From Hormoscilla sp. (GTDB taxonomy: Bacteria > Cyanobacteriota > Cyanobacteriia > Cyanobacteriales > Desertifilaceae): 33,625 nt of DNA. Within the stretch, counting starts at the first letter, position 1, and each line of letters opens with the position of its first letter. The stretch spans positions 1 to 33,625 of the forward strand of contig JBFRWI010000041.1 in NCBI GenBank assembly GCA_051439505.1. Direction: 5' to 3'. Under the pieces are notes generated by a model. That model was not told the origin of the DNA. It ran no database searches and saw only the letters and a list, made by a program, of their open reading frames with translations. This document shows positions 16,035-33,625 of the stretch, one piece after another. The translations under genes were made by a program, and so were the position numbers.

Positions 16035-16359
16035 TGGGGGCAGAGGGACTTGAACCCTCACGACCTTTGGGGTCAACGGATTTTCATCCTCCCGCAGCTT
16101 TCGCTGCTGCCATGACCGGCTTTGAGAATTGGACCCTCCCTTTACCCTCGACTTGACGTTAGGGTAGCTCCCGTCGGGCCTCTGCACCTTCCGATTTTGT
16201 CATCATTTGTCTATTGACAACTGTTTCGGCTTGGCTCAGGATTGCCTTGTCTGTTGCCAGATTTAGGTTTCCCTGAATTTGAGAGCTTCCACTTGGCCGA
16301 TTTCTCCACCAAGGCTCAGTTTTCTAAGTCCGTAGCGTCTACCATTCCGCCATGCCCCC
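16035..16359 (-). tRNA. trnL-UAA: tRNA-Leu(UAA) interrupted by a group I intron; exons 16326..16359 and 16035..16084
   Basis: 5' exon GGGGGCATGGCGGAATGGTAGACGCTACGGACTT. 3' exon AAAATCCGTTGACCCCAAAGGTCGTGAGGGTTCAAGTCCCTCTGCCCCCA. Acceptor stem GGGGGCA/TGCCCCC, long variable arm, anticodon U^AA. Confidence 0.96.
16085..16325 (-). ncRNA. Group I intron (IC3, cyanobacterial/plastid trnL type), 241 nt, no ORF
   Basis: Conserved blocks on the minus strand: GAGCCTTG, AAATTCAGGGAAACCT (P), AATCCTGAGC (Q), GTGCAGAGGCCCGACGG (R), AAAGGGAGGGTCC (S); ends in the terminal G. Confidence 0.94.
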
Positions 16360-16587
16360 TTGGCACGTAAGCTGGGTGGTTTATCTACACAACTTTTTTA
16401 TCATATCATCATTTATCACTCTGTGCAAGGGGATCTGAAAAAAAATTTTTTCCTCTATGTGCCGGCACCCTTCTATCTTACCCTAGCGGGGAAATTTTGG
16501 GGTAGCAAGGGGTAAAATGGTTGAGATAACTGGCATCTATCGCCAATGTGCGAGATTTTGCTTGACATTTGAGGAGCTTTATGGTAT

Positions 16588-30231: not shown

Positions 30232-30837
30232 ATGAAGCGCAATCGAGTGTTGCTGATCCACGGCATAGACGACACCGTAGTGGTCTTCGATACAATGTCT
30301 GCATACCTGAAGCAGCGGGGTTGGGATGTCTACAGTCTGGACTTGATTCCCTGTAATGGTGATTGTGGTCTGGACCTGTTGGCACAGCAAGTGGCTGATT
30401 ATGTGACGAAAACTTTCCGGCCAGATGAGCCTTTTGACTTGGTTGGCTTTAGCATGGGAGGAATTATCAGTCGCTACTACGTCCAGCGCCTGGGAGGACT
30501 CTCACGGGTACAGCGCTTTATTACTATATCTTCTCCCCATCATGGCAGTTGGTTGGGCTATGCACGCCAAAACCCAGGTTGCCAGCAGTTGCGTCCCGAT
30601 AGTGATTTTCTCCAAGATTTGAATCGAGATGCGGCTATGTTGGCAAGGTTAAATTTCACTTCCATCTGGACGCCTTTTGATTTGATGATCTTGCCAGCTA
30701 ATAGTTCCTCTATGCCAGTAGGTAAGGAATTAACAGTGCCGATCTTGGTTCATTCCTGGATGGTGAGAGACTCCCAGAGTTTAAAGTTGGTAGCCCAGGC
30801 GTTGATGGAACCTTTAAGGAATAAACATGAAGCGTAA
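30232..30837 (+). CDS. Small alpha/beta-hydrolase lipase/esterase (copy 1)
   Basis: VLLIHGI, LVGFSMGG nucleophile elbow, SSPHHGS, WTPFDLMI (Asp), VHSWM (His). Confidence 0.92.
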   Translation: MKRNRVLLIHGIDDTVVVFDTMSAYLKQRGWDVYSLDLIPCNGDCGLDLLAQQVADYVTKTFRPDEPFDLVGFSMGGIISRYYVQRLGGLSRVQRFITISSPHHGSWLGYARQNPGCQQLRPDSDFLQDLNRDAAMLARLNFTSIWTPFDLMILPANSSSMPVGKELTVPILVHSWMVRDSQSLKLVAQALMEPLRNKHEA

Positions 30838-31435
30838 TCGAGTATTGTTGATTCACGGGATATTTAGAAAATTGGGCGTGTTTAACAAAATGGCAGCCCA
30901 TCTCACCGGGCGGGGTTGGCAGGTCCACCGCTTTAATCTGCAACCGAATAATGCTACCTTGGGATTAGATGAGTTGGCCCTTCAGGTGGCCGATTATGTG
31001 GATAGCAACTTTCCCCCAGATGAGAAGATAGATTTGGTAGGTTTGAGCATGGGGGGTTTGGTGACGCGCTATTACATGCAGCGCTTGGGAGGGATCGATC
31101 GCGTGGAGCGTTATATTACAATATCAGCACCCCATCATGGCACTTGGATGGCCTACTTGCTGCCTTGTCGGGGCTGCGTGCAGATGCGTCCGTCAAGTAC
31201 ATTCTTGCAGGATCTGAATGGGGATGTTGAGGTTTTGCAGCAGGTTAATTTTACTTCGATTTGGACTCCCTATGATTTTATCATTGTCCCGGGAAGGAGT
31301 TCGCAAATGCCCGTGGGCAAAAATATCAAGCTGCCTGTATTTGCTCATGCTATGATGGTGAGAGATGCTCGGGCTCTGGAAGCTGTGGTAGAGGCCCTGG
31401 AAGCACCCTTACAGTTACCAGTTACCCGTTCGTAG
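30827..31435 (+). CDS. Small alpha/beta-hydrolase lipase/esterase (copy 2, tandem paralog)
   Basis: VLLIHGI, LVGLSMGG, SAPHHGT, WTPYDFII, AHAMM. Confidence 0.92.
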   Translation: MKRNRVLLIHGIFRKLGVFNKMAAHLTGRGWQVHRFNLQPNNATLGLDELALQVADYVDSNFPPDEKIDLVGLSMGGLVTRYYMQRLGGIDRVERYITISAPHHGTWMAYLLPCRGCVQMRPSSTFLQDLNGDVEVLQQVNFTSIWTPYDFIIVPGRSSQMPVGKNIKLPVFAHAMMVRDARALEAVVEALEAPLQLPVTRS

Positions 31436-31510
31436 TAAGGACTTTAGTCCTTCCCCGTTTGTAGTAAGGACTTCAGTCCTTCCCCGTTTGTAGTAAGGAC
31501 TTCAGTCCTT
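31432..31510 (+). repeat. Three tandem 29-bp GTAG-REP-like units (related single copy at 30088..30109)
   Basis: GTAGTAAGGACTT(T/C)AGTCCTT-CCCCGTTT at 31432, 31461 and 31490; GTAGTGAGGACTTCAGTCCTCA at 30088. Confidence 0.9.
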
Positions 31511-31595: not shown

Positions 31596-32213
31596 TCAAC
31601 CATAAAAAGCGGCCTTCAATGCAGCTGATGCTTCAGTTAGGGACTCTCGCCCTTGGGGAAATATTTTTGCCATACAGGTAAATGCGTGGATCGCGCCCTG
31701 ATAGCGACTAATCTTAACTGGCACGCCTGCTTGCCGAAGGCGATCGCCATAGGCTTCCGCTTCATCTCGCAGGGGGTCCAACTCAGCAGTGATTATCAAT
31801 GCGGGGGGCAAGTTACTCAGATCAACTGCATGCAAGGGAGAGGCATAAGGATTTTTTCCCTCAAGGGGTGTAGGTAGATAGTGATTCCAGAACCAAACCA
31901 TCACATCCTTAGTACAAAGATAATCCTTACCATACTTTCGATAGGACTCGGTATCAAAGCCATACTGGGTGACTGGGTCGAACAGCAGTTGATAGACTAG
32001 AGAGGGACCGCCCCGATCGCGTGCCATGAGAGTCACGACTGCCGCTAAATTACCCCCTGCGCTTTCTCCGCCCACACCGATGCGCGTGCGATCGCCCTTA
32101 ATTTCAGCAGCATTTTCCGCCACCCATTGAGTAGCAGCGTAAGCATCTTCTGGGGCAGCGGGAAACTTATGTTCTGGTGCCAGACGATAGTCCACAGATA
32201 CCACGATGCAGCA
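31596..32213 (-). pseudogene. 3' fragment of an HSL-family (alpha/beta hydrolase_3) esterase split by the IscB element
   Basis: Begins abruptly at [33 protein letters not shown] and GAIHAF are retained; the N-terminal HGGG region is missing and the iscB 3' end lies directly upstream. Confidence 0.85.
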
Positions 32214-32241
32214 TACTAAAAAACTGGTAATTTCCGGAAAA

Positions 32242-33507
32242 TTATCCCCATTTATACGAATATCCATCTCTTCTGAAGACAGGTTTTAGGTCTATTGGCT
32301 TGACTGACTTCTGGGTTTTGTCAGGTTTGGTCAACACAAAACTACCCCGACTTCTAGGAGTAATTCTACCTATCCCATGTACTTTATGCTTGGCAATATC
32401 ACCAGTTTGCCATCCCTTGATGGGTTTTAATGGATTGTGACGGATTGGATATCCGTACTTGTTAAGAGCAGCTTTTTGACGACCTCCACGCCCCTTACAA
32501 GTAATTAGTAGTGGTTGCGTAGTTGAGATTTTCAACCTGGGGGTACTTTTACCCACACAAGCTGCATCTAACCAATGAGTTTTAGGTAGCCCTTGAAGAA
32601 TCCGGTTGTATTTTGTTAAACCTCCCGTGCCAGTTTCAATAGTTAATCCAGTTTCCTTAAGGCGGTTAAACAATGCCCATCGGGTAGAATTGACTGCCGC
32701 TGCATCTTTTAGAGGGGCCTTTGCTTGCGCTAACAAGCGCTTCAAAACTTCAGGCTTCTTTTTTAAGAATTGCTCGACAGGTTTATTTGCTTTTTTCTGG
32801 TTGCATTTATGGCAAGCGATAGCCAGATTGCTGACTCTATCAGAGCCTCCCTTACTCTTAGGATAAATATGCTCGATTTCCAACGGGACATCTTTGGCCC
32901 CGCAGTAAGCGCATTGATGTCGCCATTTGGTCAAGAGGTACTCTCTCAACTCGTATCCAAACAAGACTCCCTGTTGGTACTCAACTCCCGATATCTCAGG
33001 GTTTTGCAGCTTTTGTGTGTCAAACCGTACTAGCTCCATTGAAATGTCTGTTATCGGGCAATACTTCCGCAAGCGCTTAACCCAGGTCATAGTCGTTTCT
33101 ACTCGATGTTGCAGGCTAGGAGCTAGCCATCCTGACGGTCGCCTTCTATTATCAAACCTAGCTTGGCGGTAACGGGTTTTACGATTGCGACGTCGGGCGC
33201 GAACAGTACGACGATCTGCTAACTTTTGCCGTATCATGTCCCCTCTATGGGTTAATTCAGCGGCCCAGACAACTGTACCCGTTCTGTCGTTAACCAGTGC
33301 AATTCCCGTTACCTTAGCCCCCGGGTCTAATTTAATCCGATGAGGTTCATTGGCAGGCTCTCCAACAGTTTTTCTAAGGATAATCGTAAACGGATAAGTC
33401 CTAAACACTGCGGCCTTTCCCTGCTTCAAAAGCTTTCTCGCTCTGGCCGGATGAGTTGGACTGAGCGGTTGCTTATTGGCATCTAAAACGAAGACACTAT
33501 TTTGCAT
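32242..33507 (-). CDS. iscB: RNA-guided endonuclease IscB (RRXRR + split RuvC + HNH)
   Basis: VFVLD...PLSPT (PLMP-like), IKLDPG.K.TG (RuvC-I), Arg-rich bridge helix [30 protein letters not shown] (RuvC-II), CAYC...[23 protein letters not shown] (HNH), HWLDAACVG (RuvC-III). Confidence 0.95.
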
Positions 33508-33625
33508 TTAAGCAACTCCCTAAAAAGGGGTAAAGTTTGCCTCGGTCATGTTAAGAGAGCTTTTTACATCTAACTCACGCGGTCCTATAAAATCCATTCG
33601 TTCCGTTCCTTAAAGCTAGACGATA
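33508..33625 (-). ncRNA. 3' part of the omegaRNA (HEARO-type) upstream of iscB; truncated by the window edge
   Basis: Minus strand TCTAGCTT...GAGTTAGA stem, then AAAAAGCTCTCTTAACATGACCGAGGCAAACTTTACCCC-TTTTTAGGGAG just before the iscB ATG, the usual position and 3' motif of IscB omegaRNAs. Confidence 0.82.

Follow-up and report, generated by a model that had tools for sequence, protein, structure and literature searches.

An IscB-omegaRNA element of Hormoscilla sp. with IS607-like ends, probably moved in trans by a serine recombinase

The window, that is, the whole stretch of 33,625 nt analysed here, carries a real and, judging from its letters, apparently intact IscB-omegaRNA element, which splits an esterase gene. 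The element probably depends for its movement on an IS607 serine recombinase supplied in trans. Since it lacks TnpA and no autonomous version was found in 236 loci, we class it, as the likeliest reading, as a non-autonomous IS607 derivative and not as a canonical member of the family. The window equals contig C41 of an assembly of 6.47 Mb in 232 contigs (genome G000). The features of the element and of the interrupted gene, two of which lie on contig C193, are as follows.

31596..32210, minus strand: esterase 3' half, 204 aa, hormone-sensitive-lipase family, with GESAGG, DPLRD, and HAF kept
32209..32211, plus strand: target motif CAG (CTG, the predicted TAM, on the iscB strand); AG at 32210-32211 is common to both junctions
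32212..32247, plus strand: iscB-3'-side end, the IS607-type left end in the proposed model, with the dyad GGTAATTTCCGGAAAATTATC 14 nt from the core; it overlaps the iscB stop codon
33507-32242, minus strand: iscB, 421 aa, with RuvC-I/II/III, bridge helix, and HNH intact
33508..33625, minus strand: omegaRNA (HEARO) 3' part and ribosome-binding site, 113/118 nt identical to the copy on contig C2
C193:444-127: esterase 5' half, 106 aa, with HGGG, found by a family search of the genome
C193:127-1: 5' 127 nt of the omegaRNA including the omega-side end, with about 7 nt unassembled before C41

The iscB product scored 489 bits with the NCBIfam model guided_IscB (cut-off 175) and contained the Pfam domains RRXRR and HNH. 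Its motifs PLSP (PLMP-like, at 14), IKLDPG (RuvC-I D61), and ISMELVRFD (RuvC-II E158), followed on the C-terminal side by EIEHI (HNH H213), two CxxC, and THWLDA (RuvC-III H311/D314), aligned with those of solved IscBs, in agreement with the initial annotation, which had described a 421-aa IscB with all catalytic motifs. The search for sibling copies that it proposed yielded a second, complete copy on C2. These are the only two iscB genes in the genome, and they were 88% identical in nucleotides (1239/1414) and 91% in amino acids. Among named records, the nearest IscB relatives came from Hormoscilla MAGs, at 87-93% identity, and from Arthrospira platensis, at 80-81%.

An omegaRNA 3' part had also been proposed upstream of iscB, and indeed 96 nt at this place matched positions 125-211 of the Rfam HEARO model (26.4 bits, E 0.0012), the 5' side being cut by the contig end. 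Since the window is the whole contig, the omegaRNA was cut by the assembly, and truncation in the cell is not implied. The C2 sibling matched the entire model with 74.7 bits (E 4.5e-15), below the gathering score of 83. The omegaRNA upstream of the iscB ORF begins at the element end. A single-sequence fold was no better than shuffles (z -0.66) and the alignment held few compensatory pairs (3/57); hence, the omegaRNA call rests on Rfam. The RNA run X15 covered relatives of iscB and of the omega region but not the esterase; contigs of this kind give neither strand nor level.

The initial annotation had placed the missing esterase 5' half, with HGGG, just beyond the window, where it was indeed found. 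It reads MPIDPE...HGGGW...LAKQAD and then passes directly into the omega-side element end. Rejoined and aligned as had been suggested, the two halves (106 + 204 aa), both open, tiled the orthologs with zero gap, and the catalytic HGGG, GESAGG, D, and H were intact across them. The 3' half matched positions 29-209 of the Pfam model Abhydrolase_3; it resumes mid-domain as first described, at 32210 and not at about 32213. C193 stops 127 nt into the omegaRNA, and comparison with C2 indicated that about 7 nt are absent before the start of C41. C193, these 7 nt, and C41 together give an element of 1548 nt, the length of the C2 copy. In the genome G002, the upstream genes of C193 and the downstream genes of C41 lie in collinear order on either side of what is left of a decayed esterase gene, which supports the join as correct. 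C119, the first 127 nt of which are identical to those of C193, was considered as the partner contig, but esterase continuity and the G002 synteny favour C193.

At the DNA level, no empty esterase allele was found: G002 has the decayed 3' fragment only, and nothing matched in G001, G003, and G004. The element region is covered by three DNA runs from a single study. In two of them (X1 and X3), the esterase-element junction is bridged, with no other letters, by one of the contigs listed, and the loose ends listed for the three runs included no empty allele. As for the proposed recency of the insertion, the undecayed esterase halves speak for it, whereas the sole other iscB copy, just 88% identical, speaks against it.

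The junctions were then defined with other copies. In the genome, 23 omega-side and 18 other-side ends were counted. When the copies of six relatives were included, every omega-side junction consisted of variable bases followed by CT (28/28), and every iscB-3'-side junction of CTG followed by variable bases (24/24). Only three positions were fixed across the 24 junctions, as against the 4-5 nt of an IS200/IS605-type target motif. Empty alleles were sought for 14 copies, namely eight of G000 with both flanks and six of relatives. Informative empty sites were obtained for five of the 14, all rejoined cleanly, four with CTG, one with TTG, and none with ATG. Flank-CTG-flank was observed for C2, for C180, for C43 in three genomes, and for C39, there on the left side and in the first bases only; flank-TTG-flank was observed at the L072 site in G000. 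L072 was the only one of the relatives' six copies with a full empty site, and no usable one was found for C113, C153, C166, and C203. Thus, the empty sites indicate insertion or loss at N-CTG on the iscB strand without duplication or deletion, apart from a 2-nt ambiguity. The element runs CTCTTG...AGTATG within N|CTG, the ambiguity concerning CT, so that the same dinucleotide, AG on the plus strand, stands at both junctions. The subterminal palindrome GGTAATTTCCGGAAAATTATC begins at 32226, as had been noted before.

These data overturned one proposal of the initial annotation, a cut TTTTTTAGT/ATGCTGC with an ATG-type TAM. The sibling empty alleles carry CTG without ATG, and copies of Arthrospira type end ATA-CTG; for these reasons ATGCTG was rejected and CTG is the predicted TAM, ATG being part of the element. 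A TAM ATGCTG would keep the reading frame with one residue extra (QAECCIVV versus the ortholog QADCIVV). An IscB TAM read from a single junction can therefore err by several bases. In the CboIStron (10.1101/2023.11.20.567912, as far as the available part of the source describes it), the terminal dinucleotide forms part of the scaffold, and the core part of the TAM. By analogy, the guide is predicted to end ...AAGCAAGCAGA; if the scaffold started one base later, the TAM would be TG. The esterase 5' half adjoins the omega-side end and so would supply the guide, as the earlier prediction of a guide from the flanking DNA on this side had it. Across 301 genomes of the order, the left-end pattern was confined to the genus except for one match with three mismatches, and the omega-end pattern was absent from the viral contigs searched. 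A plasmid search returned relatives only, up to about 60% identity.

The probable origin of the ends was indicated by an IS607 family in the same genome.

G000:C213:26563-28367 (L242), with further copies on C1 and C147 and five in G002: IS607 family, tnpA overlapping tnpB, TG core

The omega-side end matched the right end of the IS607 element at C213 with a score of 41, which was equalled by none of 20,000 random genome windows and none of 10,000 shuffles, and the two are collinear to the last base on the plus strand of the window. End-anchored ungapped identity was 22-27/40 in all 16 pairs, from two genera, and fell to 4-18 when the sequences were slid by 1-3 nt. In an unanchored scan of 51 IS607 and four Y1/RAYT loci, the top three matches were the terminal 46 nt of the C213 family. 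Against the IS607 reading, random 3.5-kb loci also reached 41 in the unanchored scan, and genome-wide BLAST of the element end found the IS607 end at E 0.15 only. The right end contains direct motifs at -37, -28, and -18, a dyad lies 14 nt from the core at both ends, and the same CCGG(A/T/C)AAT motifs occur in the C213 family and in the IscB element. On the left, ATTTCCGGAAAATT has a 14-nt identity with the IS607 left end, 18 versus 17 nt from the core. This match is weak, being equalled by 87/20,000 random windows, and the unanchored scan showed no preference for it. The opposite orientation, with the iscB 3' end as the IS607 right end, is less favoured (25 + 29 versus 21 + 41), although the near-palindromic motif leaves room for it.

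Chen et al. (PMC6188088) describe, in the available part of the paper, an IS607 signature in which termini and target share one dinucleotide, the target is not duplicated, and the ends have short direct motifs and, close by, an imperfect inverted repeat; all of these were found in the IscB element. The element lacks the serine-recombinase TnpA, and it has an AG core and a CAG target in place of a GG core and a G-rich target. The C213 family has the target (G/C)TG with TG at both ends, and its three empty sites are GTG; its core TG differs from the AG of the IscB element, and its purine-rich upstream preference is absent from the latter. By eye, many cyanobacterial IS607 left ends are preceded by ..GAG. 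A changed donor dinucleotide partly reprograms IS607 TnpA (Zedaveinyte et al., in the available part), so that a TG-core enzyme may accept a passenger with an AG core; it is equally likely that the mover is a related TnpA missing from the assembly.

The five IS607 copies in G002 are 99.5% identical and intact, and the family also occurs in G001, G004, G301, and G324. In G000, which like G001, G002, and G004 has the matching IS607, the matching tnpA copies are broken, by an in-frame TAG at C213 and a frameshift at C1. G003 (570 contigs) has the IscB family, and no clear copy of the matching IS607 was seen there. Among 81 genomes sampled from the Arthrospira family, both genomes with multiple omega ends (G301 and G324) were among the five with the IS607 right end; these two are probably kin, and the co-occurrence is then not independent. 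None of the 236 loci held an autonomous element with iscB and a serine tnpA. The two adjacent cases were an IS607 nested in a broken iscB (L304) and a divergent pair (L318/L462).

The IS200/IS605 framework (Y1, hairpin) implied by the initial annotation became doubtful, as the ends match an IS607 element. We consider it unlikely that the element is an ordinary ISC or IS200/IS605 element transferred as single-stranded DNA by a Y1 (HUH) TnpA in trans, with the dyads as hairpins, and likewise unlikely that the shared dinucleotide is no more than a resemblance between the cleavage tetranucleotides of the two ends, such as that seen in the GT|GG class. Both putative cleavage motifs carry A at -2, as do those of IS608 and ISDra2. 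The element ends are foldable into hairpins, but the same dyad motif also lies within IS607 ends; iscB is antisense to the left-to-right direction as in ISC, and an open 148-aa IS200 TnpA is encoded on C60 (NF033573, 88.9 bits versus 55). Furthermore, all IscB elements described in the available parts of PMC4810608 and 10.1101/2023.03.14.532601 are of IS605 type, and Y1-moved ISC elements can show ambiguous dinucleotide junctions (Kapitonov et al., PMC4810608, available part). However, the four Y1/RAYT loci scored at background against both ends (27-32; random mean 29.5-31.6), and a genome-wide search of the assembly, which is 93% complete, found no IS605-type element with these ends. The target has 3 nt only and is not AT-rich, the GTCA start is absent, and the right end is collinear with that of IS607.

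Another explanation is a MITE-like element that moves by cut and paste through a DDE transposase and has terminal inverted repeats of 24 bp, imperfect in sequence. If CT is taken as its 2-bp target duplication, an imperfect inverted repeat with GGTAATTTCC 14 nt in can be seen by eye on both sides, and gene-less miniatures have multiplied. This explanation is very improbable: CT is followed by a fixed G on one side but not on the other, it is an IS607 end to which the homology in register points, and the genome-wide search gave no DDE element bearing such ends. IS607 elements, too, are described as having an imperfect inverted repeat close to their ends (PMC6188088, available part). A third explanation overlaps the preferred one in origin and differs only in present activity, namely that the ends derive from IS607 and the element is now stranded, with no compatible TnpA left and IscB homing only maintaining copies. 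In its favour, neither matching tnpA copy of the assembly is intact, the iscB copies share just 88% identity, and the loose ends listed for the three DNA runs included no empty esterase allele. We nevertheless find such stranding rather doubtful, because about 20 miniatures occupy sites empty in congeners, and the family has thus moved in this lineage. In addition, the 93% complete assembly breaks at repeats, and further open IS607 tnpA genes are present at C151, C170, C194, and C125.

The boundaries, target, precise empty sites, intact nuclease, and shared right end are evident in the sequence; for a non-autonomous element served by an IS607 recombinase, the following steps are proposed beyond them. 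The 1.55-kb element (omegaRNA and iscB, no transposase) would have taken its ends from an IS607-family transposon, giving on the plus strand of the window the order target C-AG | left end, iscB (antisense), omegaRNA (antisense), and right end ending AG. A serine-recombinase TnpA acting in trans would bind the CCGG(A/T/C)AAT repeats about 10 bp apart, the likeliest supplier being the IS607 family at G000:C213 or a close relative. Excision as a double-stranded circle would involve a crossover in the shared AG, and integration would occur at CAG. Transcription from the host flank, the esterase gene on the same strand, may yield guide and omegaRNA together; a same-strand upstream host gene is a bias reported in the available part of Meers et al. 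(10.1101/2023.03.14.532601). By analogy with the same work, IscB would cleave the rejoined, element-free allele (guide ...AAGCAAGCAGA, TAM CTG), and recombination would restore the element. The omegaRNA-only miniatures with the same ends may give extra guides in trans. If a serine recombinase moves the IscB element, the homing partnership of a nuclease with a scarless transposase would have been rebuilt for the Cas9 ancestor on an unrelated, double-stranded mechanism, and the co-evolution of TAM and target would be testable with one plasmid set.

Most copies of the element are in fact gene-less omegaRNA miniatures with the same ends, eight of which were fully assembled (354-446 nt).

G000: C39, C43, C93, C113, C153, C166, C180, and C203, plus about a dozen contig ends: omegaRNA-only miniatures

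They have an added terminator-like hairpin after the scaffold (scored for C113), and none were seen in the four congeners searched. In run X1, the depth over the ends was about 50 times the esterase depth, a ratio that is not a copy number. When 24 guides were searched for self-targets (12-nt seed with at most one mismatch, then CTG), seven weak matches for five guides and no perfect target were obtained in the assembly. For practical purposes, the family offers a 421-aa IscB for which the predicted TAM, CTG, is short, together with the complete scaffold of the sibling and some two dozen guides of natural origin.

We compared the element with known systems as described in the available parts of the respective sources. 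ISC (PMC4810608) and the ISGst IscB of Geobacillus (10.1101/2023.03.14.532601) are alike in carrying iscB only, with HEARO upstream at the right end and no transposase, and likewise in the lack of target duplication, a TAM that is the reverse complement of the target motif, a same-strand host gene upstream, and PATE-like miniatures. Their targets, in contrast, are GT|GG, GT|RA, N|ATGA, or TTCAT and not N|CTG, and they share Y1-read hairpins with IS605 elements, whereas here the ends are shared with IS607 and one dinucleotide stands at both junctions. In the available portion of Meers et al. (10.1101/2023.03.14.532601), a serine resolvase is found with TnpB and not with iscB. Members of the IS607 family (IS607 and IS1535, PMC6188088; CboIStron, 10.1101/2023.11.20.567912; ISXfa1, 10.1101/2023.08.09.552727) resemble the element in several respects: termini and target agree over 2 bp without duplication, direct motifs recur at a spacing of about 10 bp, an imperfect inverted repeat lies close to the ends, a guide-RNA stem-loop contains the TnpA repeats, and the predicted TAM includes the core dinucleotide. 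They differ in carrying TnpB, usually tnpA, and a GG core, against an antisense IscB, no tnpA, and an AG core here. Standalone trans-acting omegaRNAs (PMC10691335) are similar as gene-less omegaRNA copies in the genome of the effector, but those described here are mobile miniatures of 354-446 nt with IS607-type ends and the added hairpin. None of the papers listed in full-text searches of the literature described IscB within IS607 ends in its title or abstract opening.

A FastTree phylogeny of 65 IscB rows, from which loci with fewer than 300 aligned residues were left out, placed the Hormoscilla and Arthrospira copies in one clade (support 1.0), with two Brasilonema copies with unusual ends as sister. 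Most distant relatives have an IS605-type start, by a crude pattern (35/56 scoreable) and also by eye, and the Hormoscilla/Arthrospira clade lacks it; the end labels on the tree come from the crude pattern, and some rows are mislabelled, e.g. L082. A separate lineage (L085, L090, L082, and L086; support 0.96) showed GA at both junctions, then G, and direct repeats.

L085, L090, L112, L082, L086, L092, L299, L302, and L303: second IscB lineage, with GA at each junction, a G always following the 3' one, and direct repeats of 10-11 nt

Its predicted TAM is GAG, and at its 3' end L082 has a weak similarity (E 0.15) to an IS607 left end from the same genome. The GA-junction lineage hints at repeated capture of IscB by IS607 ends. 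More broadly, and with somewhat less than even confidence, we suggest that cyanobacterial IscB-omegaRNA was captured more than once by such ends (Hormoscilla/Arthrospira, AG core and TAM CTG; Prochloron-type, GA junctions and N|GAG). This would constitute a second, serine-recombinase-driven class of IscB, with the omegaRNA 5' stem rebuilt from TnpA repeats, the target at the overlap of recombinase core and TAM preference, and dozens of miniatures that serve one or two nuclease genes as a library of mobile guides.

Several loci are recorded here as separate observations. At L462:3003-5070 (G308:C59), a serine tnpA without tnpB stands head to head with iscB, with an IS605-type hairpin between them and AGGCA-like repeats in both the tnpA and iscB regions; this could be an autonomous arrangement or two neighbours. 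At L304/L461 (G306), the IS607 with tnpA and tnpB lies inside the 3' half of the broken iscB, and such nesting is a route by which IS607 ends can come to border iscB. At L060 (G004:C29:76113-76302), a decayed IS607-family right end directly adjoins a 40-nt stub of the IscB omega end. The Arthrospira copy of the matching IS607 at L443 (G301:C56) is interrupted at the left end and in tnpB; the left-end insert has a terminal sequence like domain V of a group II intron. By eye, the TnpB of the C213 family has a DPG RuvC-I motif like that of the pro-Fanzor group.

Elsewhere in the window, a tRNA gene at 16070-16360 (minus strand) is split by a group I intron (16117-16335 by Rfam). Two tandem overlapping paralogous genes at 30232-31435 (plus strand) encode small thioesterase/lipase-like alpha/beta hydrolases of 201 and 202 aa. 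Judging by its sequence, the intron is presumably the usual cyanobacterial tRNA-Leu(UAA) intron. Three 29-nt repeats of the TTCGTAGTAAGGACTTTAGTCC type at 31422-31510 are members of a short repeat family that all four congeners carry in dozens of copies.
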